Shown piece by piece: positions 7,806-52,888 of a stretch of 64,000 nt of DNA. The notes beneath the pieces were generated by a model. It saw only the letters and a list, made by a program, of their open reading frames with translations. It was not told the DNA's origin and searched no databases. Origin of the DNA: Pristiophorus japonicus. Its lineage: Eukaryota. Position numbers and translations under genes: made by a program. Location of the stretch: NCBI RefSeq assembly GCF_044704955.1, contig NC_091980.1, positions 23,002,001 to 23,066,000 of the forward strand, written 5' to 3'. Within the stretch, counting starts at the first letter, position 1. Each line of letters starts with the position of its first letter.

Positions 7806-8009
7806 TGTTATGTATGTAAACATTCCCAAATGTGTAAGACTTGCCACCAGTGGGCGCACCTGTGGGAGACCCAAGGGTCACCTGCACACCCTGGCAAGCA
7901 GGTATAAAAGGCAGTCTACCATGCTGTTTCCTCACTCTGGAGTTACATTAAGGTCACAACAGTTTGAGCTTACAATGTACAGTCTTGTAGAGTTATTCTG
8001 AACATAACA
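7806..8009 (+). repeat. 5' LTR of Gypsy element 1
   Basis: TGTTATGTATG...AACATAACA with a TATAAAA box; direct repeat of 12026-12217. Confidence 0.93.
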
Positions 8010-8010
8010 A

Positions 8011-8021
8011 TTGGCAACGAG
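8011..8021 (+). promoter_or_regulatory. Primer-binding site of Gypsy element 1
   Basis: TTGGCAACGAG lies immediately after the 5' LTR; TGG is complementary to the tRNA CCA end. Confidence 0.75.
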
Positions 8022-8040
8022 TAAAAGATCACAAACTTTA

Positions 8041-9259
8041 ATGCGGTTATGGCTGCCATTGGTATTCTTGAGAAATTTGTTAAGGGTGATGGGTTGAAGC
8101 CTTCGTTGAGCATCTTGACCAGTACTTCGTGGCCAACGAGCTAGAAAGGGAAGAAACCGTGGTCAAGCGCAGGGCAATTCTCCTCACCGTTTGTGGCTCC
8201 ATGATATATGGCCTCATCAAAAATCTGCTAGCATCGACGAAACCAATGGAGAAGACATATGAAGAGTTGTGCACGCTGGTTCGGGAACACCTCAAGCCGA
8301 AGGAGAGCATCTTGATGGCCTGGTATCTCTTTTATATGAACCACCGCTCCGAGGGCCAGAACGTGGCGAGCTGTGTCGCCGACCTAAGACGCCTTGTGGG
8401 ACCGTGCATATTTGCTGGATTTTTGGGGGAAGTGTTGTGGGACTTTTTCATGCTTGGAATTGGCCACAAGGTCATTCTACGCAAACTGCTGTCTGCCAAA
8501 TCTCTAGATCTGAGCAAGGCCATCACAATAGCCCAGACTTTCATGTCCACGAACGATAACACTAAACAGATATCATTGCAACATCGAAACTCACTGGCAA
8601 GTAATGTGCATAAAATAACACCTTCAGCAGGCAGAACTCTATATGGCAGCGCCTACACGCCCACAGAGGCCAGACCTAGGATGACTCAGAGTCCGCCGTG
8701 GGGCGTGAATGCGAATCCATTAGCACCATGTTGGCGCTGCGGGGGTAATCATTGAGCCCATCAAGGGCGACTCAAGCACTACATGTGCAAGGGCTGTGGA
8801 ACAATGGGGCACCTCCAGCGAATGTGCAGATGTGCTGCGACACACCACGTGGCAGAGTCGGCAGAAGATGATCGATCTGGCGCGGATCATGCTGAACGAG
8901 TAAGAGAGGCAACTCAACCCGAGGCTGAAGAGGAAGTGTATGGGGTACACACTTTCACCATCAAAAGCCCTCCGATAATGTTAAAAGTAAAATTAAATGG
9001 CATTCCAGTTTCCATTGAATTGGACACGGGGGTGAGTCAGTCAATTATGAGCCAGAAGGCTTTTGAGAAACTGTGGGGCAACAAGGCACAAAGGTCAAAA
9101 CAAAGCCCGACCCACACCAAGCTGCGCACTTACACCAAAGAGCTCATACCAGTCATTGGCAGTGCGGCAGTGAAGGTATCGTACAATGGAGCTGTGCATG
9201 ATTTATACTATGGAATGTACCAGGTGATGGCCCAACGCTGTTCGGCAGAAGCTGGATAG
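8041..9259 (+). pseudogene. Gypsy gag plus aspartic protease, disrupted
   Basis: ORFs 8129..8755 and 8783..9259 contain the knuckle region CWRCGGNH*...CKGCGTMGHLQRMC and the protease motif ELDTGVSQSI. Confidence 0.85.
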
Positions 9260-9431
9260 GAAAGATCCGATGGAACTGGGACGACATAAAAGCACTGTCT
9301 TCAGTGGATGATGCCTCGTGCGCCCAACTGCTGAACAAATTCCCATCATTATTTGTGCCAGGCATCGGCAAAGTGCAGATCCATCTAGTCCCTGATGCAC
9401 GACTCGTTCCAAGGCCCAAGCGGTTCCATAT

Positions 9432-10711
9432 ATGATGCGAGAGAAAGTTGAGATCGAGCTGGACAGACTTCAACGAGAGGGGATCATATCGCCAGTCGAG
9501 TTCAACGAGTGGGCTAGTCCAATTGCTCCAGTGTTGAAAAGCGACGGGGCAATCAGAATCTGCAGGGACTACAAGGTAACAATCAACCGAGTCTCGTTAC
9601 AGGACCAGTACCCACTACCCAAAGCAGATGACCTGTTTGCAACGCTAGCAGGGGGGAAGTCGTTAACATAGCTGGATCTAACCTCTGCTTACACAACACA
9701 GGAGCTGGCTGTTCCTTCGGAAAAATTGACGTGCATCAACGCGCACAGAGAACTGTTCATGTACCACAGATGCCCCTTTGAGATTTGCTCGGCTGCGGCC
9801 ATCTTAAAGAAGTACATGGAGAGTCTGCTGAAATCGGTTCTGCGCACCGTGGTGTTTCAAGACGACATTTTGATCACTGGCCGCAACACCACTGAACACT
9901 TGCACAACCTGGAAGCGGTTCTCAAGCGACTGGACAGAGTGGGAATCAGGCTGAAATGCTCCAAGTGTGTTTTCCTGGCGCCAAAGGTCGAATTTCTAGG
10001 GAGAAAGATTGCAGCGGACGGCATCAGACCCATGGATTCCAAGACAGAGGCCATCAAGAATGCACCCAGACCATAGAATATTACGGAGCTGCGTACATTC
10101 CTGGGACTCCTCAACTATTTTGGTAACTCTCTACCAGGGTTGAGCACTTTGCTGGAACCATTGCATTTATTGCTACGCAAAGGTGACGACTAGGTTTGGG
10201 GTAAATCTCAAGAGACAGCTTTTAACAAGGTCAGAAACCTGCTATGTCCTTACAAGTTACTTGTAATGTATGACCCGTGTAAACATTTAGTACTAGCTTG
10301 TGATGCATCTTCGTACGGGGTCGGTTGCATATGCGTCTAGAAGCTTATCTAAGGCTGAAAGAGCCTACAGTATGGTTGAGAAAGAAGCATTAGCATTTGT
10401 ATACGGTGTTAAGAAAATGCACCAATACCTATTTGGACTCTGGTTCGAGCTCAAAACCGACCACAAGCCGCTCATTTTGTTGTTCTCATAAAGCAAAGGT
10501 ATTAACACCAATGCTTCGTCCCGCATCCAAAGATGGACACTCAGGCACTGATGCTGATGCCCTCAGTCGGCTACCACTGTCCACCACCGAGGTGGAAATG
10601 GCGCAACCCGCAGACTTGCTTCTGGTAATGGATGCTTTTGAGAGCGAGGGGTCACCCATCACGGCTCCCAGATCAGGACCTGGACTAGCCAGGACCAGGT
10701 GCTATCACTAG
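9432..10711 (+). pseudogene. Gypsy reverse transcriptase plus RNase H, disrupted
   Basis: WASPIAPVLKSDG, QYPLPK, VVFQDDILI, VEFLG, AYASRSLSKAERAYS and TDHKPL, spread over several frameshifted ORFs. Confidence 0.88.
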
Positions 10712-10879
10712 TAAAAAGCCGTGTCCTCAATGGGAGCTGGTCATGGTTCCAGGGGAAATGCAAGACGAAATTAAGCCATTCCACCAACGCAAGGATGAAA
10801 TGTCCATCCAGTCGGACTGTCTCCGATGGGGGAATCATGTAATTTTGCCAAAAAAAGGCAGGGAAACATTTATACGTGA

Positions 10880-11992
10880 ACTTCACAGTACCCACCAGGC
10901 ATAGTCATGATGAAGGCTATCGCCAGGTCACATGTTTGGTGGCCCGACATTGACTCGGAATTCGAGTCATGCATACACCAATGTAACACTTGCTCACAGT
11001 TGAGCAATGCACCAAGGGAGACCCCACTGAGTCTGTGGTCATGGCCCTCCAAACCGTGGTCCAGGGTCCACGTAGATTTCGCTAGCCCTTTTCTAGGAAA
11101 GATGTACCTAGTAGCAGTGGACGCTTACTCGAAATGGATTGAATGTATAATAATGTCGTCATGTACGTCCACTGCCACCATTGAAAGCCTCCGGGCCATG
11201 TTCGCCACCCATGGTTTGCCCAACGTTCTTGTTAATGACAATGGTCCATGTTTCACCAGCTTGGAATTCAACGAGTTCATGACCCGCAATGGCATCAAAC
11301 ATGCCAGGTCTGCACTGTTTAAGCCTGCATCCAATGGTCAAGCGGAATGGGCAGTCCAAACCATCGAGCAGAGCTTGAAATGCATGACGGACGGTTCCCT
11401 GCAGACCCGGCTATCTCGGATTCTGCTCAGTTACCACATGCGACCCCACTCGCTTACCGGGGTTCTCCCTGCAGAATTGCTACTGAAGAGAGCACTCAAA
11501 ACCAGGCTCTCCTTAGTCCAACCAGATCTCAATGATCATGTAGAAACCCGGCATCACCGGCATAACGTGTACCACGATCGCGCGGCTGTATCATGTGACA
11601 TTGAGGTTAATGACCCTGTGTTTGATCTTAATTATGGTCATAGTTCCAAATGGGTTGCTGGCAGTGTGTTAGCCAAGGAGGGGAATAGAGTGTTTGTTGT
11701 CAAACTTTTGAATGGACAAATGTGCAGAAAGCACTTGGATCAGACCAAACTGCAGTTCAGTGACAACCAAGAACAGTTTGAAGAGGACATTACCATCAAT
11801 GATCCACCCACACATACCCAACCAGCAATTGACCTTGCGGTCAACCACGAGGATGAACCCACCATGCCCGACAGTCTGATCAGACCAGCCACACCGCAGT
11901 ACAGCAATGATCCGACCGACTCACCCATGCCAGGACTTCAACTCAGGCGATCAACCCCGAAACGCAGAGCCCCGGATCATCTCAACTTGTAA
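10880..11992 (+). pseudogene. Gypsy integrase
   Basis: ORF 10907..11992 contains CHQCNTC-type zinc-finger cysteines (CIHQCNTC), VHVDFA, DNGPCF and SNGQAE (DDE core). Confidence 0.9.
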
Positions 11993-12025
11993 GTAACTTG
12001 TATCTAAAATTTGGGGGGGGAATGA

Positions 12026-15158: not shown

Positions 15159-16079
15159 AAAATAAGGCATGAACCGTTCGGCTCAGCACCAGAGGGTGCC
15201 GGGCTCCTGTCGAACCACAACTCCCAATGTGAACAAGGCGATGAAAGGAGGAAATTAGATGAGAACATTCTTTGACAAAGAGAACCACAGAGAAAATCAG
15301 CCCATTATTTTCTAAAGCTGCATTATTTAAACTGATGATTTACATCGTAGCACACTTCAAGGTGACATTAGATCATTTAGATGCATTGCCGCTGAAGGAA
15401 AATACACTGCTTACAGGAGAAATTGGTTGCTTTTAACTTTAATGTGATGCCACGGAAATATTCAGGTTGGAGAAGGCATCAATGAATGGGGACACGTACT
15501 CTCATGCAGAACTTGCTTGTAGCAAACATCCTGTGAGAATTGCAAATGGAAAGAATAAAATACTGTGTTTGTTTAGTAATCTATTAAATGGCCTTATTAC
15601 CAAGTAATCTGCTGCAGATTAGATTGCTGTAATTTTCCAATTTAATAATGTAATCCTTCACTGAACATGTCATGACACACACTGCTGGAAAAAAAAATCT
15701 TCAACAGACAGCATCAGGATTCATTTTATAATTTGAAGTAAACACTGCTAGGTATTTATAAAGATTATTATTGGATGGGCGAAAGTGATTACATGGAATC
15801 ATAGGAACTAGAAACGCGGCAATATTAGCATATGAATTCTTAACACGCATTTACGATGTTTCACTGTCCGCTATTTATGAGGTGTTAGCCCTTTTAAAGT
15901 AACGGACAGACTATTTGAACTAACACTTTTCTGTTCCTCTGCGCCTGCTTCCACCAGACCTCCCCCCGCCCCGACGCATCCCGCCTGAAAGCGGAGCCGG
16001 ACGTGGGGCCCCACTATTGACCACGTTGTGCGAGCCAACCGCTGATCCTCTGATCGAGCCGGAAAGACAGGGGCAGCAG

Positions 16080-17440
16080 GCGGCGGGGAGAGAGAAACGG
16101 CGGGGTGAGAGGGGCGGTGGAAGAGAGGGACGGTGGGGTGAGAGGGGCAGTGGGAGAGAGGGGCGGAGGGGAGAGAGGGCGGCGGGGGGGGGGGGGGGGT
16201 GAGAGGGCGGTGGGAGAGAGGGGCGGTGGGGAGAGAGGGGCAACGGGGAGAGAGGGGCTGTGGGGAGCGATGGGTGGTGGGGAAAGAGGGCGTTGAGAGA
16301 GAGGGCGGTGGGGAGGAGAGGGGCGGGGGGTGGAGAGGGGCAGTGGGGAGAGGGGCTGTGGGGAGCGATGGGTGGTGGGGAAAGAGGGCGGTGGGAAAGA
16401 GGGGCGGTGGGGAGAGAGGGGTGGTGGGGAGAGAGGGGTGGTGGGAGAGAGGGGCCACGGGGAGAGAGGGGTGGGGGGGAGAGAGGGGCGCTGGGAGAGA
16501 GGGGCCGCGGGGAGAGAGAGGCCGTGGGGAGAGAGGGATGGCGGGCGGTGGGGAAGAGGGGCGGGGGGGAGAGAGGGGCGGTGGGAGAGAGGGGCCGCGG
16601 GGAGAGAGAGGCCGTGGGGCGAGAGGGATGGCGGGCGGTGGGGGAGAGGGGCGGGGGGGAGAGGGGGCGGTGGGTGGTGGCAGGGAGGGGCAGTGAGGAG
16701 AGAGTCACACGAGGGCGGAATGAGACACATGGCGGGGGAGAGAGAGACACATGGTGGGGTATGGAGGGAGAGACACATGGTGGGGGAGAGAGACACATGG
16801 GGAGGGAGAGACACATGCCGGGGAGAGAGAGACACAGGGGGTGGGAGAGAGACACATGGCAGCGGAGAGAGAGACACATGGTGGGGTAGGGAGGGAGAGA
16901 CACATGGCGGGGGAGAGAGACACACGGGGGTGGGAGAGACACGTGGCGGGGTAGGGAGGGAGAGACACATGGCGGGGTAGGGAGGGAGAGAGACATGGCG
17001 GGGTAGGGAGTGAGAGACACATGGTGGGGGAGAGGGACACATGGGAGGGGAGAGAGAGACACATGGCGGGGGAGAGAGGGACACATGGGGGGAAGGAGAG
17101 AGAGACACATGGGGGGAGATAGAGTGACACATGCGGGGGGAGAGAGAGAGACACACATGGTGGGGAGAGAGACACACATGGTGGGGGAGAGAGACACATG
17201 GGGGGGCAGAGAGAGACACATGGGGGGGAGAGAGACACATGGGGGGGCAGAGAGAGACACATGGGGGGAGAGAGAGTGACAAATTGCGGGGGGAGAGAGA
17301 CACATGGGTGGGGAGAGAGACATACATGGGAGTGAGAGAGATACATGGTGGGGTGAGGGAGAGGCACGGGGTGGGGAGAGAGACACACGGCTAGGGGGAG
17401 AGACACACGTGGTGGAGGGGAGACACACGGGAAATTCAGA
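16080..17440. repeat. G/A-rich minisatellite with two successive 18-20 bp unit types
   Basis: GGGGAGAGAGGGGCGGT-like units at about 16080-16700, then GGGGAGAGAGACACAT-like units at about 16720-17430. Confidence 0.92.
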
Positions 17441-20779: not shown

Positions 20780-21333
20780 GGTGCCCATATTGAAGACTCA
20801 CTGGCAGGATAGTCACACCAACCTCAGCATTCTCTCTCAGGCCAACATCCTCAGCATCGTGGCATTGACTACGTTCGACCAGCTCCGGTGGGCGGGCCAC
20901 ATTGTTCACATGCCCGATGCTAGACTCCCGAAACAAGCACGCTACTCCGAGCTACGTCACGGTAGGCGAGCCCCAGGAGGGCAGAGAAAACACTTCAAGG
21001 ACACCCTCAAAGCATCCTTGAAAATTGCAACATCCCTCCCGACTCTTGGGAATCCCTGGCCCAAGACCGCTCAAAGTGGAGAAGGAGCGTCCGAGAAGGC
21101 ACTGAACACTACGAGTTTCTTCGCCGGGAGCACGCGGAAGCCAAGCACAAACAGCGGAAGGAGCGTATGACAAACCAATCACCCGACCCACCCTTCGCCC
21201 CCAACCACCATCTGTCCCACCTGTGACAGTGATTGTAGATCCCGCAATGGACTCATCAGCCACCTTAGATCTCATTTTAGTGTGGAAGCAAATTACCCTC
21301 GACTCCGGGGGGCTGCCTAAGAAGAAGATTGAA
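20780..21333 (+). mobile_element. RTE LINE 3' fragment
   Basis: QLRWAGHIVHMPDARLPKQ...GGQRKHFKDTLK, then the 3' motif GGAAGCAA...GCTGCCT and (AAG)n. Confidence 0.9.
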
Positions 21334-27745: not shown

Positions 27746-28685
27746 GAAGATCCCATGACATCCCAACATCCCCATGACATTCGGAAATGCTCCAAGACAG
27801 CAAAATGAAAGAAGGTCCACCTATAATAGATCATGTCAGCTTTTCCCACTAGACAGTTCCTTTTGCCATATATTCTACATACACATACGGTTGAGAACCA
27901 GCAAAAGCCAGCTCAATTATTGCACACCAGTTTATATGACAGATGGGCCTTAGGAGGGTCGCAAATTCATAAAACAGGATCGAAAAGTCAAGGCCATTAA
28001 ACAATAAGCCAAACCCTTGTGTAATGTCACTATCTGTTCAACTACACGTCCATCATCATCAGTGCGACACGGTTAGAATATTTGACAGGTATGCAATTAG
28101 TAATGATTGTTTTCCTTGTTGTGTTCTTTATTCAGAGTTTTATAAAATATAATTTTGCAACATTTAATGCACTGAAAGAACTCGACTCAACCAAAAGCAA
28201 GTTGAAAGCTACAAGAATCCCATGTTATTGAACTCATCGGAGGAAGCAAATAGCAATTGTCAATTGTATCAGTAGGTCAGTCGATCAGGATATTTTCACT
28301 TGGACCAACATCATGCGAGGAAGCAAGTACATTGTACTTGCACCTTGAAAGCCAAACGTGTAAATTAAATTATGAAAGAAATCAATTCACAGGCTACGAT
28401 TACTTTGTTGAAGTTAAACCTTTACAATTCTGCTGTGTATTCAGCCAGCACTGAAACTTCCTGGGCCCAACATATCTCCCAGAATAGGTGCTGATCTTGA
28501 CTTGTATGCAGTCCTGTAGGTAGTAACAGATAGGCAGTTACTCTCTCCAGTGAAGAGCTGTGCGCAATGATTGGTGGTGATATCATTGATGAAAATGAGG
28601 GAAGGTCTGAGTTTGACGTCACAGATGAAAATGAGGATGACAAACAAAAGCCACTGAGATTATTCCATTGGGAAGAAAAGGCACA

Positions 28686-29159
28686 GTCCCAGAACTTGTG
28701 CTCCGGATGATGGTGAACTGGCAGCGTTCGCCGTCATTCCATCTTTGAGACGGACCGCGCGCTTGCGGAAATCCTGAAATTGCGGTCTGTCATTCACTGC
28801 TCCTCCACTGGCTGCGCTGTGCCTCACCCCCAACTCTCCCACCCCCTCCCTAAACACCTCCCCATCCGATCCCCCATTAAGGGCTGGATTTTCGGCTTGC
28901 TAGCGCCTCTGTTTTCGAAGAGCTTACCCACTTCCTGGTTTGCTGTCTGTAAGAATTCTGTGTTTTGATTGGCGACACAGACAGCTTGTTGATGTCACAG
29001 CAGCTCACACTCGTGGATCCCCACTACACTCCATTGATTGAATTGAGCATCGGAAATCCAGAGTGCTCGATATCAAGATCGTGAGATCTTTGTGCAAAGC
29101 TTACTTCAGGATCCAACGGCAAACGCCTTCACTTCACTGCTGACTGCAAATTCCGGGCC
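28686..29159. mobile_element. MITE with long imperfect inverted ends
   Basis: Left GTCCCAGAACTTG...GCGTTCGCCGT versus reverse-complemented right GGCCCGGAATTTG...GCGTTTGCCGT. Confidence 0.55.
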
Positions 29160-31389
29160 AAAGTATAATTATGACTATCTCCTCCAAGGCAACAAATTTG
29201 ATTATTTTCCATTAACCAGATGGAGCATACTTTAAATTGAAAGTACTCCATCATCTTTAAAATACCTTTATTAATTTGTTACTTTTATCATAATAAATAT
29301 TGATCTATCATGAGAAGGAACTCAGCCATTAAAAAAAGCGAAAAAGCATTTTGGGTTTATTGGTAGACTGTAAGAGCAAAGAAATAATGATACATTTGCA
29401 CAACCCATCGGTTAGGCCACAGCTCGAGTACTGCGTTGTGCTTTGGGTGCCCCATTATCATATACTCATAGAATCATAGTAGTTTACAGCAGGGAGGTAG
29501 ACCATTTTGGCCCATCATGTCCGCGCCGGCCAACAAGAGGCTATCCAGCCTAATCTCACTTTCCAGCTCTTGGTACGTAACCCTGCAGGTCACATCACTT
29601 CAGGTGCACATCCAAGTACTTTATAAATGTGGTGAGGCATTCTAACTCTAGCACCATTTCAGGCAGAGAGTTCCAGATCCCCACAACCCTCTGTGTAAAG
29701 AAATTTCCCCTCAAATTACTGCTAAACATTCTACCAATTACTTTAAAGTTATGCCCCCTGGTTGTTGACCCCTCTGCTAAGGGAAACAGGCCCTTTCTAT
29801 CCACTATATCTGGGCCCCTCAGCATTTTATATATCCCAATGAGATCTCCCCTCAGCCACTTCTGTTCCAAGGAAAACAAACCCAGCCATCCAATCTGTCC
29901 TCATAGCTAAGATTCTCCACTCCCGGCAACATCCTCGTAAATCTCCTCTGTCATCCTCATAGGCAATCCCTCGGAGTCGAGGATGACTTGTTTCCACACT
30001 AACATGAGTTCTCAAGTGACTGAAGAGACCAAGTCGGGACATACAGCCTCTGTCACACGTGGGGCAGATAGTGGTTGAAGGAACAGGTGGATGGGGTGCC
30101 TGGGTTGCCATTCGCCCCTTCCACTGTCTGCGCTTGGCTTTAGCTTGCTCTCGGAGAAGAGACATGTGGTGTTCGCTGCCTTCCCGGATGCTTTTCATCC
30201 ACTTTGGGCAGTCTTGGGTCAGGGATTCCCAGGTGTCGGTGGGAATGTTAAGTTTTTTCAGGGAGGCTTTGAGGATGTCCTTGAAGAGTTTCCTCTGCCC
30301 ACCTGGGGCTCGCTTGCTGTGTCAGAGCGCCGAATAGAGCGCTTGTTTTGTGAGTCTCGTATCAGGCATGTGGGCAATGTGTCCCATCCAGCAGACTTGA
30401 TCAAGCGTGGTCAGTGCTTCGATGCTAGGGACACTGGCCTCAGCGAGGACATTGACGTTGGTGCGCCTATCTTGCCAATGGAGTTGCAGGATCTTGTGGA
30501 GGCAGTGTTGGTGGTATTTCTCCAGTGTTTTGTGGCGCTGCTGTGCATAGTCCATTTCTCTGAGCCTTATAGGAGGGCGGGAATCACCACTCTCTGTAGA
30601 CCATGAGCTTGGTGCCTGATTTGAGGTCCTGGTCTTCAAACACTCTGTTCCTCAGGTGACCGAAGGCTGCACTGGCACACTGAAGGTGGTGTTGTACCTC
30701 ACTGTCGATGTCTGCCCTTGTTGACAGTCGGCTCCCAAGGTATGGAAAATGGTCCATGTTGTCCAAGGCCTTGTCGTGGATATTTATAACTGGGGGGGGC
30801 AGTGCTTTGTGGCGGGGGCAGGTTGGTAAAGGACCTTTGCCTTACTGATGTTTAGTGTAAGAACCGTGCTCTCGTATGCCTCGGTGAAGGTGATGACGAT
30901 GGCTTAGAGTTCAGCCTTCAAGAGAGCGCAGACGCAAGCATCGTCTGCGTACTGTAATTCGATGATGGAGGATGGGCTGACCTTGGATCTAGCCTGGAGG
31001 CCGCAGAGGTTGAACAGTTTCCCGTTTGTCCTGTAATTTAGCTCCACTCCAGCAGGGAGCTTGCTGAGGTTGAGATGGAGCATTGCAGCAAGGAAAATCG
31101 AGAAAAGCGTTGGTGCGATGACACTGCCCAGCTTGACCCTGGTCCGAATGTGGAATGAGTCTGTGATGGATTCATTGGTCAGGATCACGGCTTGCATGTC
31201 ATCGTGGAGCAGGCGGAGAATGGTGACAAACTTTTGAGGGCAGCCAAATCTGAGGAGGACGCTCCATAATCCCTCATGGTTGATAGTGTCAAAGGCTCTT
31301 GTGAGATCAAAGAAGGCCATGTACTAGGGTTGGTGCTGTTCTATGCATTTCTCTCGTATCTGTCGCGCAGTGAAGTTCATGTCCATGAC

Positions 31390-31692
31390 AAAGGGATGAG
31401 GTCCTACGAGACGAATTTAAGGAGCAAGGAGCTAAATTAAAACGTAGGACCTCAAAAGTAGTAATCTTGGGATTGCTACCAGTGCCACGTGCTAGTCAGA
31501 GTAGAAATCACAGGACAGCTTCAGTGGCTTGAGCAGTGGTGCAGTAGGGAGGGATTCAAATTCCTGGGGCATTGGAACCGGTTCTGGGGGAGGTGGGACC
31601 AGTACAAACCAGACGGTCTGCACCTGGGCAAGACCGGAACCAATGTCCTCAGGGGAGTGTTTGCTAGTGCTGTTGCGGAGGAGTTAAACTAA
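31390..31692 (+). pseudogene. CR1 ORF1 C-terminus (SGNH esterase-like)
   Basis: WLEQWCSREGFKFLGHW...YKPDGLHL contains the DxxH block of the esterase domain known from CR1 ORF1. Confidence 0.8.
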
Positions 31693-31769
31693 TATGGCAG
31701 GGGGATGGAAACCAATGCAGGGAGACAGAGGGAAACAAAAAGGAGACAAAAGCAAAAGACAGAAAGGAG

Positions 31770-34688
31770 ATGAGTAAAAGTGGAGGGCAGAGAAATCCAA
31801 GGCAAAAAACAAAAAGGGCCACTGAATATAAAGAGGTTGCAGGAGGGGTCAAAACTAAAAATCAGGGTTTAAAAACTAGGATTAAAACACTCGACCTAAA
31901 TGCACGCAGCATTCGAAATGAAGTAAATGAGTTGCTGGCACAAATCATTACAAATGGGTATGATTTGGTGGCCATTACAGAAACATGGTTGCAGCATGGC
32001 CAAGACTGGGAATTAAACATACAGGGGTATCTGACGATTCGGAAAGATAGACAAGAAGGGAAAGGAGGTGAGGTAGCTCTGTTAATAAAGAATGATATCA
32101 GGGCAATTGTGAGAGACGATATTGGCTCTAATGAACAAAATGTTGAATCATTGTGGGTGGAGATTAGAGATAGTAATGGGAAAAAGTCACTGGTGGGCAT
32201 AGTTTATAGGCCCCCAAATAATAACTTCACGCTGGGGCGGACAATAATCAAGGGAATAATGGAAGCATGTGAAAAAGAAACGGCAGTAGTCATGGGGGAT
32301 TTTAACCTAAATATCGATTGGTCAAATCAAATCGCACGGGGTAGCCTTGAGGAGGAATTCATAGAATGCATACGGGATTGTTTCTTAGAACAGTATGTTA
32401 CAGAACCGACAAGGGAGCAAGCTATCTTAGATCTGGTCCTGTGTAATGAGACAGGAAAAATAAATGATCTCCTAGTAAAAGATCCTCTTGGAATGAGTGA
32501 TCACAGTAAGGTTGAATTTGTAATACAGATTGAGGGTGAGGAAGTTGTGTCAGAAACGAGCGTACTATGCTGAAACAAAGGGGACTACAGTGGGATGAGG
32601 GCAGAGTTGGCTAAAGTAGACTGGAAACACAGACTAAACGGTGACACAATTGAGGAACAGTGGAGGACTTTTAAGGAGCTCTTTCATAGTGCGCAACAAA
32701 AATATATTCCAGTGAAAAAGAAGGGCGCTAAGAGAAGGGATAACCAGCCGTGGATAACCAAGGAAATAAAGGAGAGTATCAAATTAAAGACCAATGTGTA
32801 TAAGGTGGCCAAGGTTCGTGGGAATCTAGAAGATTGGGAAAATTTTAAACAACAGCAAAGAATGACTAAAAAAGCAATAAAGAAAGGAAAGATAGATTAC
32901 GAAGGTAAACTTGCGCAAAACATAAAAACAGATAGTAAAAGCTTTTACAGATACATAAAACGGAAAAGAGTGACTAAAATAAATGTTGGTCCCTTAGAAG
33001 ATGAAAAGGGGGATTTAATAATGGGGAATGTGGAAATGGCTGAGACCGTAAACAATTATTTTGCTTCGGTCTTCACGAGGGAAGACACAAAAACCATGAC
33101 AAAAATTGCTGGTCACAGGAAAGTGGGAAGGGAGGACCTTGAGACAATCACTATCACTAGGGGTTAGTGCTGGACAGGCTAATGGGACTCAAGGTAGACA
33201 AGTCCCCTGGTCCTGATGAAATGCATCCCAGGGTATTAAAAGAGATGGCGGAAGTTATAGCAGATTCATTCGTTGTAATCTACCAAAATTCTCTGGACTC
33301 TGGGGAGGTACCAGCGGATTGGAAAGCAGCTAATGTAACACCTCTGTTTAAAAAAGGGGGCAGACAAAAGGCAGGTAACTATAGGCCGGTTAGTTTAACA
33401 TCTGTAGTGGGGAAAATGCTTGAAACTATCATTAAGGAAAAATAGCGGAACATCTAGATAGGAATAGTGCAATCAAGCAGACGCAGCATGGATTCATGAA
33501 GGGGAAATCATGTTTAATTAATTTACTGGAATTCTTTGAGGATATAACGAGCATGGTGGATAGAGGTGTACCGATGGATGTGGTGTATTTAGATTTCCAA
33601 AAGGCATTCGATAAGGTGCCACACAAAAGTTTACTACAGAAGATAGAGGTACGCGGAGTCAGAGGAAATGTATTAACATGGATAGAGAATTGGCTGGCGA
33701 ACAGAAAGCAGAGAGTCGGGATAAATGGGTCCTTTTCGGGTTGGAAATCGGTGGTTAGTGGTGTGCCACAGGGATCGGTGCTGGGACCACAACTGTTTAC
33801 AATATACATAGATGACCTGGAAGATTGGACAGAGTGTAGTGTAACAAAATTTGCAGATGGCACAAAGATTAGTGGGAAAGCGGGTTGTTTCGAGGACACA
33901 GAGAGGCTGCAAAGAGATTTGGATAGGTTAAGCGAATGGGCTAAGGTTTGGCAGATGGAATACAATGTCGGAAAGTGTGAAGTCATCCACCTTGGGAAAA
34001 AAAACAGTAAAAGGGATATTATTTGAATGGGGAGAAATTACAACATGCTGAGGTGCAGAGGGACCTGGGGGTCCTTGTGCATGGATCCAAAAAGTTAGTT
34101 TGCAGGTGCAGCAGTTAATCAGGAAGGCGAATGGAATGTTGGCCTTCATTGCGAGAGGGATGGAGTACAAAAGCAGGGAGGTCCTGCTGCAACTGTATAG
34201 GGTATTGGTAAGGCCGCACCTGGAGTACTGCGTGCAGTTTTGGTCACCTTACTTAAGGAAGGATATACTGGCTTTGGAGGGGGGTACAGAGCTGATTCAC
34301 TAGGCTGATTCCGGAGATGAGGGGGTTACCTTATGATGATAGATTGAGTAGACTGGGTCTTTACTCGTTGGAGTTCAGAAGGATGAGGGGTGATCTTATA
34401 GAAACATTTAAAATAATGAAAGGGATAGACAAGATAAAGGCAGAGAGGTTGTTTCCACTGGTAGGGGAGACGAGAACTAGGGGGCACAGCCTCAAAATAC
34501 GGGGGAGCCAATTTAAAACTGAGTTGAGAAGGAATTTCTTCTCCCAGAGGGTTGTGAATCTGTGGAATTCTCTGCCCAGGGAAGCAGTTGAGGCTAGCTC
34601 ATTGAATGTATTCAAGTCACAGATTGATAGATTTTTAACCAATAAGGGAATTAAGGGTTACAGGGAGCGGGCGGGTAAGTGGAGCTGA
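31770..34688 (+). pseudogene. CR1 ORF2 (APE endonuclease plus reverse transcriptase), with stops and frameshifts
   Basis: [54 protein letters not shown] and FADG (FADD mutated). Confidence 0.93.
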
Positions 34689-37600
34689 GTCCACGGCCAG
34701 ATCAGCCATGATCTTGTTGAATGGCGGAGCAGGCTCGAGGGGCTAGATGGCCTACTCCTGTTCCTAATTCTTATGTTCTTATGTTCTTATGTCTATTGTG
34801 CCCCTTAGTGGGCGGAATCCACATTGCGACTCTGGGAGGAGTTCTTCAGCCACAGGGAGAAGGCAATTCAAGAGGATTCTTGCAATCACTTTCCCGGTGG
34901 TCAACAGCAGAGAGATTCCGCAGTCGGAATTGTCACCTTTCTTGAAGTTGTTCATGATTACAGCATCGCTGACATCTCCTGGCATGATCTCCTGTTCCAG
35001 ATAAGAGAGATGAAGTCATGGATCTACGCAAGTAGTGCTTCTCCGCCATGTTTTAGTGCTTCGGTGGGGATTCCATCTGCTCCTGATGATTTGTTGTTTT
35101 TCAGTTGTCAGATGACCTTTTCAACCTCGTGCCGGGCTGGGGTTGTGCTGAGATGGTGGCAGGTGGCATGCTGTGGGATGGTCTCGGTTGAGGAGATCCT
35201 CGAAGTGCTCCTTTCAGCGGGCACTGACTGCCTCTCTGACCTTGATGAGCACCTCTCTGTTCTTGGCCAGCAGTGGGGTAAGGCCTTGTGTGCTTGAGCC
35301 GTAGGTCGTCTTGACTGCGCTGAATAATCCTTGCATGTCGTGGTTGTCGGCTAGCTGCTGGATTTATTGAGCTTTCTCCACCCACCATCTGTTTTTTATG
35401 TCATGGGTTTTCTGTAGAACCTTGGCCTTCAGATGTCTGCAGAGCTGCTTTCTTGCCCTCGAGCTGTGTTGCTGCTTCCAGTCCGAGTGCCGTTGGCTTG
35501 CGGCATATTAACTCCTGGATCTCCTGGTCGTTCTCGTCAAACCAGTCTTGGTGTTTCCTGGTCGAGTGTCTAAGCGTCTCTTCTCTTGTGCTAATTATGG
35601 AAGCCTTGAGGGCAGACCAGGCACTGTGGACAATATGCATCTCTGGGTCACTGGGAGTCGTCAGGTTGGTTGCGAGGCGCTGGCAGAATAGGGCTTTCTT
35701 GGCAGGATTTTTGAGTGCTCCAGCATTGATCTTCCTGCGGCATTGTTTCTGTTGCCTTCGCTGTTTTGGGGCTAAGTTGATGGTGATGACAGAGCGGATT
35801 AGGCAGTAGTCCATCCAGCAGTCGTCAGCTCCTGTCATGACGCGGGTGATGCGCATGTCCTTGTGGTCCCTTGCACAGACGGTGACGTAGCCTAGCAGAT
35901 GACAGTGCTTGGAGTGAGGATGTCGCCTTGATGCTTTATATTTGTCCTTCTGATGGAACAGGGTATTGGTTATGACGAAGCCGTGTTCTAAGCATTTCAT
36001 CACGAGGAGGGTGCCATTGGAGTTGGCTTTCCCTGCCCAATCTCTGCCAATCACACCTCCCCAGAGGTCAGTGTTCTTTCCAACTCTGGCGTTGAAGTCC
36101 GCAAGGTTGATCAGCTTGTCGCCCGTTAGAACTCGGGACAGGGATTGTTCGAGGCTGGAGTAAAATTCTTCTTTGCTCTCATCTGCAGCTTCCAATGTTG
36201 GGGCGTATGCGTTGAAGACCATAGCACACTGGTTCTGTACTAGAGTGAGCCGAAGAATCATGAGGCTGTCAGAGGACAGTGGGAGGTCGAAGGTCAGAGG
36301 ACAGCGGGAGGTCGGAGAGCAGCGGGAGATCAGAGAACAGTGGGAGGTATGAGGAGAGCGGAAGCCCAGAGGTCGGAGGGCAGCGTGAGGCCTGGAGGTT
36401 GGAGGACAGCGGGAGTTCTCACGATCAGCGAGGCCTGGAGGTCAGAAGTGGCGAGCACCAGGGTCATGGCCCAGGAGCAGCGCAGTGTAGACCAGCAGCG
36501 GGGCCGTGGCCCAGGAGTGGCGCAGCTGACTGTAGGAATGTGCATGTGTGAATGAACAAGGCCCATACAGCAGAGCCTGGTCTCCAGTCACCTTTAATCC
36601 CTTTGCCACTGGACCAAGACCTTGTTCTGCCAAGCCCGTGTGGTAGCTGGTGTGCAATGGACAGACCATGTTAAAATAATTCATGCACAGGCATCTTCCA
36701 CACTTTAAGATGAGGTTCGGGACCTGGAACGTCAGGGCGCTCATGGACAACCCGAACAGCGATAGACCGGAATGCCGCACTGCTATCGTTGCCCGGGAAC
36801 TTGGGCGTTTCGACATTGACATCGCCGCCCTGAGCAAGACCCAGCAGGCAGGGGAAGGCCATCTCAAAGAACAAGGTGGTGGCTACACCTTCTTCTGGAA
36901 CAGCAAACCAGAAGCAGAATGTCGCCTCCATGGGTTTGGCTTTGCAGTAAAAAACGAGCTAGTGGGTCGTCTCAGATAATCCCCCTGCGGGATAAATGAA
37001 CGCCCCATGACTCTTTGTCTCACTCTAGACCGGAACCAAGGGAGGTCTCCTCTGTATCCTCTCCAGTGCAATCACGCTCTTCCTGTAATGCGGTGACCAG
37101 AATTGGCCTAACCAGTGTTTTATACAATTCATGCATAACCTGCCTGCTCTTATATTCTATACCTCCACTAAGAAAGGCAAGCATTCTGCATGTCTTCTTA
37201 ACCACCTTATCTACCTGGCCTGCTACCTTCAGGGATCTGTGGACCAGCAGTCCAAGGTCCCTTTGTTCCTCTACACTTCTCAGTGTCCTACTATTTAATG
37301 TGTATTCCCTTTCCTTGTTAGCCCTCCCCAAATGCATTACCTCACACTTCTTCAGATTATAGAAAGGACATTAAAATCATAGAGAGTACAGTGTCGATTC
37401 ACAAGGATGAGGTATCATCACTAAGGAAGTTCGGACATTTTTTTCTATACAGAGGATTGTTGGAGCAAGGAATACTTTGCTACAGGGAATGATTGAGGCA
37501 GAGACCATTGCTTATTTTATGGGAAAATTCAATAAATACTTGAAGCACAGGAATATACTTGAATCTAGAGGAGAGCATAGATTATTTTTAGATTGCTCTA

Positions 37601-38009
37601 GCAAAGAGCCAGCACACACTTGATGAGCTGAATGGGTTCCTGCGTAGGTGTAAACTATAGTTCTGTGGAACTGTCCAATCTTTGAAACCCAAAAAGGTCA
37701 TCCTTCTCCAAGTAGAGGAGGTATCTGGTTTGAAGTGATAAATGAGAAAGAGCTTGCATTTTTAAAGCACTTACCATGACCTTAGAACATCTCAAAGCAC
37801 TCCACAGCCAATGAAATACTTTTTGAAGTGCACTTTTTGTTGTGTTGTAGGAAACATGACAGCCAATTTACACAAAAGGCTCCATAAGCAGCATTGAGAT
37901 AAATGACAAATTGAATTTTTAGTGTTGTTGGTTGAGGGATAAATGTTACCATTTTATATAAATAAAAGAGATAAATAAAACCCCCATACCTCCCGTCTCC
38001 ACTCCCCAC

Positions 38010-38776
38010 TGTAAGGTTACTAATCTTCAGAAAAACACAGACCATGAACTAAAAAATTGATTGATCCAAGCTTTTTGAATTAAGCTGGACAATTAAGAAC
38101 ATTCTGTGGTCAGAAACCAAAACTTACTTCATGCATAACAACAATGGAGTTGTTACATGAGGCCCTGAACTTGATTGACCAGGGTGGGGGAAACAAACCC
38201 ACTGGAGACAACAAGTCTGTAAAAGGACCGGACGCAAAAGACCCCACGGAATGCAAATAAGGAAATATCTTTTGGATTGTCGACTCTGTGTGCAAATTAG
38301 TAGCCTTTCAAACGCATTACCACAGCCAGTTAAACAGATCATCAGATCAATAATCGAATTTCATCCCAGCAGGAAACTTATTCAAAATCTGGGTATAAAC
38401 ATACAGACATGGACATACAAGCAGGTTACGCAGAAGCAGGAGGAGAAACACAGAAAGAAACAGCAATCAGGCAAAGAGGAAGGACACAGAAGCAGGAGGA
38501 AGAGACAGAAGGATACGAAAGGAACAGGCACTGCAGAGAACAGACAAAAGAAGAACCAACTAGTCACGGAACCAATGACCACGAACCTACAATAGCTACA
38601 GCCAGGAATGGTGATTGTATGTCTAAATTCAAATTTCTCTCAGCAGTCTAGTCCTGTAATTGTAGTCGGTTTTTGTTGCGTAATAAAACGGACACTAGAA
38701 TTTTGTACTATGTGTTGTCCTTTCCCGCTATCAGTTCCGAGGTATAAAAATCAGAGTAAAGTGAACAAAACAAACA
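38010..38776 (+). mobile_element. Putative solo LTR (ERV- or Gypsy-like)
   Basis: TGTAAG...AACA ends, TATAAA at about 38394, AATAAA at about 38682 followed by a GT-rich tract. The TSD is not clean. Confidence 0.45.
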
Positions 38777-38989
38777 CCCTACACCGCCCTACCCCTCCCA
38801 TCTCCCCTCCAGTCGACCCCTCCCCTTCCCGTCTCCCTGCCTCTCCCCTCCCCCTCCCCTCTTCACCACCCCCCCATCCCCATGAGGCATCTGATGCTAC
38901 TTTCCAGCAGTGCCACCACCAGAACCACCCCGACCCCCTCACGGAGAGATAACATACACTTAGATGCAGTGTAAAGTGATGTTCCCATG

Positions 38990-39387
38990 TGGTTGGAGCT
39001 GCCATGCTGCCCATGGCTGCCGCTGCCGCTCCTTTTATGGTCCCGACCTGCCGCTGATGTTGCCACGAGGGCCCAGAGTTAGCACGGACCAGCCCACACT
39101 GCGATATGTGTGCGCATTAGGGTCCGTGCAGCAGAGCTCGTCTTCAGTCATCTTGGTTAATCCTTGCCACTGGACCAAGACCTAGCTCTGTCAAGCCATT
39201 GTGGTGGCTGGTGTGCAACGGCCACCCCATGTTAAAAAAATCCACGCAGAGGTAACCTCCATCCTTCAATATGTAGTTCGGGACCTGGAATATCAGGTTC
39301 TTCATTGAAACACCTGTGAACTCATCCCTTTTTGGTGTGGAAGCAAGTCATCCTCGATACGAGGGACCAACAAAGAAGGAGAAGAAA
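38990..39387 (+). mobile_element. Bipartite non-autonomous RTE derivative, copy 1
   Basis: The 5' part matches the RTE leader at 36560-36735 and is fused to the RTE 3' terminus GGAAGCAAGTCATCCTCG...GAGGGAC plus an AAG-rich tail. Confidence 0.8.
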
Positions 39388-40429: not shown

Positions 40430-40840
40430 TCTTCTCTTCTTAGACAGTCCCTGCAGTTGAGGAAGACTTGCTTTCATACTAATATGAGTTCTCAGGTAAT
40501 TGATGAGTCCAATGCGGGACCTACAGTCTCTGTCATGGGTGGGGCAGACAGTGGTTGAACGAATGGTTGGGTGGGGTGCTTGGGTTGTTGTGTGCTCCAT
40601 CCTGTTTGCGCTTGACTTCTGCATGCTCCCGGCGAAGAGGATTGAGGAGTTCGGTGTCTTCCCGGATGCTTCTCCTCCACTTTGAGCGGTCTTGGGCCAG
40701 GGATTCCCAGGTGCCGGTGGGGATGTCGTACTTTTTCAAGGAGGCTTTGAGGGTGTCCTTGAAGCGTTTCATCTGCCCACCTGGGGCTCGCTTACCATGT
40801 CGGAGCACCGAGTAGAGCGCTTGTTTTTGAAATCTAGCAT
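40430..40840 (-). mobile_element. RTE 3' fragment
   Basis: LRHGKRAPGGQMKRFKDTLKASLK; AAG-type tail. Confidence 0.88.
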
Positions 40841-42149: not shown

Positions 42150-42577
42150 TCATCATAGGCAGTCCCTCGAAATCGAGGAAGACTTGCTTCCACTCTAAAA
42201 GTTCTCAGGTGACTGAACAGTCCAATACAGGAACTCCAGTCTCTGTCACAGGTGGGTTGGAGGAAAGGGTGGGTGGGGGGTCTGATTTACCGCACGCTCC
42301 TTCTGCTGCCTGTGCTTGTTTTCTGCATGCTCTCGGCAACGAGATTCGAGGTGCTCAGCGCCCTCCCGGATGCTCTTCGTCCAATTTGGCTGGTCTTGGG
42401 CCAGGGAGTCCCAGGTGTTGTTGCACCTTATCAAGTAGGTGTCCTTGAAATGATTCCTCTGCCCACCTGGGGCTCGCTTGCCATGTAGGAGTTCCGAGTA
42501 GAGCACCTGCTTTGAGACTCTCGTGTCAGGCATGCGAACAATGTGGCCCACCCAACGTGGTCAGTGCTTCGATGCTG
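42150..42577 (-). mobile_element. RTE 3' fragment
   Basis: GHIVRMPDTRVSKQVLYSELLHGKRAPGGQ; (ATG)n tail. Confidence 0.88.
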
Positions 42578-42635
42578 GGTATAACTATCAGAAAAGACTG
42601 AACAGGCTGGGGCTCTTTGCTATACAAAAGAGAAG

Positions 42636-44423: not shown

Positions 44424-44680
44424 CCATCATCATCATTGGCAGTCCCTCAAAATTGAGGAAGACTTGCTTCCACTCTAAAAGTGAGTTCTCAGGTGACCAT
44501 ACAGTCCAATACGGGAATTACAGTCTCTATCACAGGTGGGACAGCCAGAGGTTGAAGGAAAGGGTGGGTGGGGAGTCTGGTTTGCCGCACACCCCTTCCG
44601 CTGCCTGTGCTTGTTTTCTGCATGCTGTCGGCGACGAGACTCGAGGTGCTCAGCACCCTCCCGGATGCTCTTCCTCCACT
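44424..44680 (-). mobile_element. RTE 3' fragment
   Basis: CATCATCATCATTGGCAGTCCCTC...GACTTGCTTCCAC, the same terminus as the other RTE copies. Confidence 0.85.
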
Positions 44681-44821
44681 TATATATTTATCTCTCAACC
44701 AACAAAAAAGTATCTGGCCATTATCACATTGCTGTTGGTGTGCAAATTGGCAGCTGCATTTCCTGCATTACAACAGCGACTGCACTTCAAAAGTACTTTG
44801 TTGGCTGTGAAGCACTTTGGG

Positions 44822-51729: not shown

Positions 51730-52888
51730 AGTAGATTCTCACACTGGCATTAGAACAATGGGGTCCGCGGGAACTTTCCAGCGGGGTCTGTGAAATAATG
51801 TGAGTACCGAGCAGGCCCAGCCTTACGGGGCGGGGAAGGGCGAGAGTAAGCGAATGAGTGGCGGGTGCAGACAGAGTTGGTTGGGAGACGGGAGCAAATG
51901 TGCAGCGCAGTGTGGGCTGGCTGTCTCACCCCAGAGGGGGAGCTCGCATGGTTGAGCGCTGACAGCAACACGAAGATCAGCAGGTTCACCCACAGTTACC
52001 AAGGCTGATGGTGGGTGCCAACCAGTTCCTCGATGCTAGTGGGACACACCCACCTCACGAATGTCTGTAAGTGAATACCTCGTTTCTTGAAAGCGTTATG
52101 AAAACACTCTTTACCTGCAGCACTTTCATATTACAGGTGGAACATCCGAAATCCGGAGTTCTAAAAACTGTAATTATCTGAAAGTCGGACATTGTGCAGA
52201 TTGCAAGAGTCGTTGTCCGGAATCCAGAAATATTTTCAGAAAACTGGACTTTAAGCTGTACATACCTTTTTCAAACACGAATCCAAAAAAATACGCAAAC
52301 TGGCCCGGCCCGGCCCAGCCTCGAGGTTGCCGGATTCGGGCCATTGGATGTAATGCTCCAAAATCCTGAAAGACACCAAAATGTCAGATTGTCTCCGAAA
52401 GCCGGAAAAGCCCGCAAATCATCCACGAGGTTTCCGGACTCGGGACATTAGATTTTCATCTCCGAAAACCAGAAATACGCGAGACTCAGCCCAGGGATTT
52501 CCAGAATTGGGATATCGGATTTCATCACTGAAATCCGGAAATACCTGAGACTCAGCCCAGGGATTTCCAGAATTGGGATATCGGATTTCATCACTGAAAT
52601 CCGGAAATACCTGAGACTCAGCCCAGGGATTTCCGGATTCGGGACGTCGGATTTTCATCTCCGAAAACCAGAAATACCCGAGACTCAGCCCAGGGATTTC
52701 CGGAATTGGGACATCGGATTTCATCACTGAAATCCGGAAAAACCTGAAAACTGGAATGGCCTTGGTCCCGAGGTTTCCGGTTTCAGGACGTTTTATCTGT
52801 ATGGCATTATAATTTAGGTGAGTGGGGTCCATGATTGCTAATCCATTTGAAAAGGGGTACTTCAACCAAGAAAGTTTGAGAACGACTG
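51730..52888. mobile_element. hAT/Charlie-like non-autonomous element hosting a Tigger-like MITE
   Basis: Right end AAGTTTGAGAACGACTG; degenerate left end AGTAGATTCTCACACT; GGGGTCC subterminal motifs at both ends. Confidence 0.55.
52134..52799. mobile_element. Tc1/mariner (Tigger/pogo-like) MITE with internal 66-67 bp tandem repeat
   Basis: TA|CAGGTGGAACATCCGAAATCCGG ... CCGGTTTCAGGACGTTTTATCTG|TA. Repeat units start at 52481, 52547, 52613 and 52680. Confidence 0.8.

Follow-up and report, generated by a model that had tools for sequence, protein, structure and literature searches.

The element at positions 29942-37055 of the stretch analyzed here is one RTE-type long interspersed element (LINE) insertion with an inverted front, located between perfect 10-base-pair (bp) target site duplications (TSDs) within an older CR1. 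The stretch, referred to below as the window, is 64,000 nucleotides (nt) of the Pristiophorus japonicus genome (assembly GCF_044704955.1, contig NC_091980.1, positions 23,002,001 to 23,066,000). This insertion was very probably made by twin priming by an RTE. The initial annotation had raised this reading for a shark RTE, and it is supported because of the geometry, the TSD, the equal age of the two halves, and the recurrence of the same arrangement in 16 further TSD-bounded copies in the genome. The RTE copy is dead and the locus has no function in view.

The inverted front is 771 bp in length (36268-37038) and lies head to head with the minus-strand part (Table 1). A homologue of 1064 amino acids (aa) with endonuclease and reverse transcriptase (RT) in a single product maps to the element in three pieces: aa 1-110 to the plus strand (36710-37039), and aa 86-602 (36300-34788) and aa 595-1063 (31401-30004) to the minus strand. 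The entire region 29952-36266 had been assigned to the minus-strand RTE. That holds for 29952-31387 and 34789-36266, while 31388-34788 is a nested CR1 that had been overlooked. The RTE proper is approximately 3.7 kilobases (kb) once the nested CR1 is subtracted. The top inverted repeat within 28000-39000 pairs 36230-36271 with 36997-37038. Its core is the 37-base overlap between the two parts (36230-36266 and 37002-37038, 30/37 identical), which reproduces the overlap described previously.

The plus-strand piece had been described as the 5’ untranslated region (UTR) and the endonuclease N-terminus. The first 110 aa do map there, but the piece starts within an 18-bp minisatellite of the 5’ region, and intact copies extend at least about 230 unique bases further upstream. 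The inverted piece is therefore itself 5’-truncated and does not contain the true 5’ end of the element. Its internal breakpoint has the orientation toward the TSD that was reported, but 7 extra bases (37039-37045) intervene.

The host sequence is presumably a CR1, a label given from the sequence type. All 29 host-family copies compared apart from this one contain the 10-mer of the TSD once, and there it continues into the sequence to the right of 37055. The duplication is therefore genuine, and no target bases were lost. The two TSD copies match at 10 of 10 positions, and with the empty-site form in all 29 host-family copies, the description as a single insertion inside a CR1 stands. No separate TSD was found for the plus segment, and one TSD spans both parts.

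Family copies were mapped on L032, a natural uninverted copy, and divergence was measured against the majority base of each column. From this family majority, the three RTE pieces differ by 9.5, 9.5, and 9.7%, or by 7.2, 7.1, and 7.1% at non-CpG positions. The two halves are equal in age, consistent with one RNA; the family is near star-like, so two near-identical RNAs would be indistinguishable. The 7 mismatches in the overlap had been ascribed either to age or to the use of two different RTE RNAs. Age alone predicts 6.6 mismatches in 37 bases, and the probability of 7 or more is 0.50, so the two-RNA idea is not needed. Each copy of the overlap carries 4 private changes. Both carry one shared non-majority base, which is found in just 2 of 40 other copies; among 741 pairs of independent copies, 4% have a non-CpG base of this kind in common in the overlap stretch. 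When each half is scored for derived bases that it has in common with other copies, the two scores correlate positively (Spearman 0.38, p=0.046, n=28). The two-template reading was thus tried by divergence, by symmetry, and by shared bases, and was not supported by any of them. The overlaps of other inverted copies are likewise mismatched, with 34/37 (L176), 63/74 (L072), and 18/23 (L034) identical positions.

Homology searches covered the genome of 5.9 billion bases, and sampled copies carry L-numbers. TSD-bounded inverted RTE copies were counted in two best-match samples. The 3’-anchored sample has 72 copies (39 copies plus 33 new). The 5’-anchored sample has 59, made up of 39 copies and 20 of 22 new ones, two having been dropped as likely duplicates; L169 and L177 also resemble duplicates. 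Among the 3’-anchored copies, the geometry is present in 8/72 and is accompanied by a TSD of at least 7 bp in 6/72, or 8.3% (95% confidence interval 3.1-17.3). These six are L072, L099, L107, L192, L195, and L199; L137 has a TSD of 5-6 bp and L082 has none. Among the 5’-anchored copies, 13/59 have twin-priming geometry and 8/59 are TSD-bounded (13.6%, confidence interval 6-25). The TSD-bounded copies are L034, L039, L043, L046, L059, L174, L176, and L178, and the TSD is absent, weak, or not assessable in L044, L066, L168, L173, and L186. Two more TSD-bounded inversions lie beside sampled copies (L066:6870-7548 and L211) and belong to a more divergent subfamily. The total is 16 other RTE copies (6 + 8 + 2), and about one in ten sampled RTE copies is flipped in this way. 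Left uncounted were L102, which is likely two insertions (no TSD, 77% versus 83%), L070, which is complex, and three forward-inverted-forward mosaics (L031, L118, and L182).

CR1 copies were used as controls. An inverted front is present in 0/29 young CR1 copies, all fully resolved, and in 0/28 distinct copies from an older CR1 family, for which flanks of 1.5 kb were examined. It is also present in 0/29 copies of the host CR1 family, which were compared by a weak all-versus-all method and were kept out of the totals. One apparent CR1 inversion (L269) came from a flanking repeat and was rejected. The Fisher test gives p of 0.18 for 6/72 RTE copies against 0/29, and 0.034-0.066 against 0/57. The contrast in inversion rate between RTE and CR1 is borderline and suggestive only.

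Outer junctions were scored by eye in 17 TSD-bounded cases, including the window copy. At least 2 bases are common to the TSD end and the antisense RNA in 8/17, where 15.6% is expected by chance (p=0.002). The remainder share one base (2 cases), share none or are unclear (3 cases), or contain extra bases (4 cases). Complementarity between the TSD end and the RNA at the breakpoint is therefore above chance in the family as a whole and is lacking at the window locus. At the inner junction, one base is unassigned in the window copy, and overlaps of 3-8 bases occur in L107, L176, and the L066 side copy. A TSD of at least 8 bp is present in 16/21 inverted copies with both ends visible versus 6/44 simple truncated copies, or up to 13/44 when borderline cases are counted (p at most 0.0005), a contrast that is inflated by hidden nested insertions. 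The truncated set is 50 copies minus 3 inverted and 3 non-simple ones. Most simple 5’-truncated RTE copies (L070-L200), unlike the inverted ones, have no TSD of at least 8 bp. Many inversions (L039, L044, L059, L082, L137, L174, L192, and L195) break in or near the GC-rich 5’ minisatellite and the unique 5’ UTR, where second priming may be concentrated.

In the series of events that we infer for the window copy, the RTE endonuclease likely nicked the target with a stagger of 10 bases between the strands. From one target end, reverse transcription likely started at the (ATG)n tail; from the other 3’ end, a second synthesis likely started at an internal site of that RNA and extended toward the RNA 5’ end. 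The first complementary DNA (cDNA) would have passed the second priming point by 37 bases, resulting in the overlap, and the second would have halted in the 5’ minisatellite. The two cDNAs were then likely joined head to head by end joining. Both halves would later have decayed by about 9.5%, and the young CR1 would have entered the RT region.

Several observations weigh against twin priming as the origin of this copy or of the family pattern. A perfect 10-bp TSD has only about a 14% chance at the age of the element. The window locus has no microhomology at its outer junction and has 7 extra bases there; extra bases occur in 4/17 of the outer junctions versus 3.9% of inverted L1 copies (available portion of PMC2912911, as for all articles cited here). 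The two samples are best-match lists of at most 40 copies per search and not random draws, and nested insertions can hide cases. Three inverted copies with both ends visible have no clear TSD (L082, L168, and L186). Three forward-inverted-forward mosaics with large deletions (L031:2821-5600, L118:1143-1855, and L182:4361-6467) are not given by simple twin priming. Across 4 runs of the same sample, none of the listed short-read contigs spans the outer junction. One contig of 167 nt aligns to 36883-37035, with 14 loose letters and 5 differences that all fall in the last 76 bases. Six of the 7 extra bases together with two TSD bases form an 8-mer of the element’s own minisatellite, for which the chance is approximately 0.055 in a 3.7-kb RNA. 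The extra bases may result from a false start in the minisatellite, from a short snap-back, or from untemplated addition. The mosaics possibly represent repeated template switches.

An assembly error at the outer junction would account for the missing contig. Positions 37038-37043 are without contig coverage, and a near-identical contig diverges there, but a gap in short-read contigs of this type proves nothing. The TSD and host continuity are exact, 16 other copies are alike, and the inner junction is bridged by contigs without any differences (358 and 352 nt) in 2/2 runs of one sample; an error is highly improbable. The 167-nt contig (window 36883-37049) could come from a second allele, from conversion involving both 37-bp inverted arms, or from another copy among the unscored candidates. 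Out of 1656 candidates, none of the 40 that were scored is an assembly copy above 88% that would explain it. Word shares of 0.06-0.07 in other read runs are no evidence of an orthologue; the contigs of two such runs, from another organism, cover repeat-conserved parts only.

Three other histories would give a real inverted copy. Twin priming on two different RTE RNAs in a single event, one for each DNA end, is unlikely. Chimeras of L1 and other RNAs in opposite orientations have been ascribed to twin priming (PMC4476161 and PMC13174262), a 37-base overlap requires no displacement when two RNAs are used, and the near star-like family could conceal two near-identical RNAs. Against these points stand the age-expected mismatches, the 4/4 split of private changes, the shared rare base, the equal divergence, and the Spearman correlation; breakpoints merely 37 bases apart on a 3.7-kb RNA also favor one molecule. 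A normal insertion with its front inverted afterwards, by DNA repair or by replication slippage with staggered breaks, is very unlikely. It would fit the extra bases and the missing microhomology at the outer junction, and the three mosaics indicate that other rearrangements occur. The later break would, however, have to hit within 7 bases of the TSD while sparing it, the outer break is at the TSD in 17 copies, the overlap copies differ by as much as the age of the element, and 0/57 CR1 copies are inverted. Independent insertion of two RTE fragments in head-to-head orientation at one spot is conceivable in so abundant a family, and L102 resembles such a case. This history is largely refuted, however: the plus piece lacks both a 3’ tail and a separate TSD, its element coordinates follow on from those of the minus piece, and one TSD encloses both.

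The twin-priming model reportedly comes from Ostertag and Kazazian in 2001, and the process has been described chiefly in mammalian L1. Inverted copies make up about 10% of human L1 copies and 31% of species-specific copies (PMC2912911). The arrangement described here is like that of 5’-inverted L1 in human and chimpanzee, with head-to-head segments in one TSD, an internal breakpoint at the TSD, and a small overlap or deletion at the flip (PMC2912911 and PMC4245944). Human and chimpanzee inverted L1 copies also have microhomology at the outer and inner junctions and a link to TSDs of at least 10 bp, features that part of the RTE family shares. Unlike L1, the RTE has a single open reading frame (ORF) without ORF1, an (ATG)n tail instead of poly(A), and a non-mammalian host. 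Its TSD is about 10-12 bp versus about 15 bp, extra bases at the outer junction are more frequent, and many breakpoints lie in the 5’ minisatellite. Inverted chimeras of small nuclear RNA or other RNAs with L1 (PMC4476161 and PMC13174262) have the same opposite orientations in one TSD, but two RNAs are involved there and one fits better here.

For engineered LINEs in HeLa and DT40 cells, second priming was proposed to need a 3’ overhang of 10-20 nt, and one of about 5 nt (ZfL2-1) was considered too short (PMC4245944). In that work, the only inverted inserts apart from a single Nimb-2 insert in chicken cells were those of L1 in human cells, and inversion was concluded to depend on host factors as well as on features of L1. 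The RTE and CR1 counts here fit the overhang proposal; RTE is absent from the elements in the available portion of that study. For L2 and RTE, the available portion of PMC4476161 describes template-switch chimeras only. No RTE inversion is described in the available portions of PMC13174262, PMC5389967, or a 2026 Bov-B paper (PMC13295347), the last of which does not contain “inversion”, “inverted”, or “twin”. No report of twin priming in RTE or BovB was found in the literature searched, which did not extend to Ichiyanagi and Okada 2008 on RTE junctions; absence from print is not established.

On balance, we lean slightly toward a general view in which RTE LINEs twin-prime routinely, in approximately one insertion in ten, without an ORF1 protein or a mammalian host. 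Whether inversion occurs would be decided by how long a 3’ overhang is preserved (about 10 nt or more), a length that the nick spacing of the clade would fix. If true, overhang length would explain both the uninverted short-TSD CR1 copies and the near-constant full TSD of inverted RTE copies. Inversion of the 5’ end is usually regarded as characteristic of mammalian L1 and as dependent on host factors and on features of L1 itself. With a comparable inversion rate in a single-ORF RTE of a non-mammalian genome, the overhang-length model can be tested directly. A further consequence is that many single RTE insertions are broken up by repeat annotation into two fragments on opposite strands.

The ORF layout, tail, TSD length, and nearest proteins fit an RTE-type LINE. 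Judged from the sequence, the element would encode a single ORF of about 1050 aa with an AP-like endonuclease and RT after a short 5’ region, as expected for RTE, and aa 1-1063 span the three pieces. The nearest proteins are single endonuclease and RT products, mostly of 960-1100 aa, and many are on contigs of 3.3-4.5 kb. One protein match bears the name Craniofacial development protein 2, which we take to be of RTE origin. Pfam and PDB searches returned no match for the RTE endonuclease piece. The family is abundant, with approximately 8,000-12,000 first-look candidates in the genome. Its (ATG)n tails and TSDs of mostly 9-13 bp fit the values of the RTE clade, which has a microsatellite 3’ tail and a TSD peak at 10-12 bp (PMC6007223 and PMC4245944).

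Table 1. Features of the RTE insertion and its CR1 host, in window positions.
Feature	Position	Strand	Evidence
Host CR1-type LINE fragment, 3’ side	29590-29941 (left limit approximate)	-	Best 39 genome copies 88-90%; unbroken across the site in 29/29 copies
TSD, tail-side copy	29942-29951	.	10/10 versus 37046-37055
RTE 3’ part: end of RT domain, C-terminus, 3’ UTR, short (ATG)n tail	29952-31387	-	Pfam RVT_1 at 30904-31323; homologue aa 595-1063; 9.5% from family majority
Young nested CR1-type LINE (endonuclease and RT, octamer-repeat tail), later insertion	31388-34788	+	Pfam PF14529/PF03372, PF00078; tail repeat 34768-34792; 5-8 bp imperfect duplication
RTE middle part: endonuclease C-terminal half to RT start; putative first-cDNA 5’ end	34789-36266	-	Homologue aa 86-602; 9.5% from family majority
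37-bp overlap, putative first-cDNA copy	36230-36266	-	30/37 to 37002-37038; 4 private changes
Inner (inversion) junction, 1 base belonging to neither part	36267-36267	.	Bridged by 358- and 352-nt contigs, 0 differences
Inverted RTE front: minisatellite part (36268 to about 36525), 5’ UTR, ATG at 36710, endonuclease aa 1-110	36268-37038	+	Homologue mapping; 9.7% from family majority
37-bp overlap, putative second-cDNA copy, outer breakpoint 37038	37002-37038	+	Best 39 genome matches all end at 37036-37039; 4 private changes
7 extra bases between breakpoint and TSD	37039-37045	.	
TSD, front-side copy	37046-37055	.	10/10 versus 29942-29951
Host CR1-type LINE fragment, 5’ side	37056-37358 (right limit approximate)	-	Host-family comparison

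The nested CR1 contains endonuclease and RT domains identified by Pfam and is 98-99% identical to its best 39 other copies. The RTE sequence is continuous across this insertion. The CR1 was probably inserted into the RT region after the RTE had arrived. Other copies of the nested CR1 (L139, L142, L207, and L255) share its start position, and it may be a full-length member of a family without ORF1.

Short elements composed of RTE 5’ UTR and 3’ tail are present in the window at 39121-39308 and 59877-59632, and in sampled loci at L048:7641-7892, L055:2086-2322, and L133:184-453. These may represent a bipartite non-autonomous derivative, and short elements of this composition have been described for RTE (PMC5786205). 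Four further 3’ fragments in the window, from this RTE family or related ones, are located at 20802-21329, 40435-40835, 42150-42583, and 44425-44681. The window also contains purine-rich tandem arrays of 17- and 22-bp units, plus a 66-bp tandem array, at 16079-17423 and 52431-52747.

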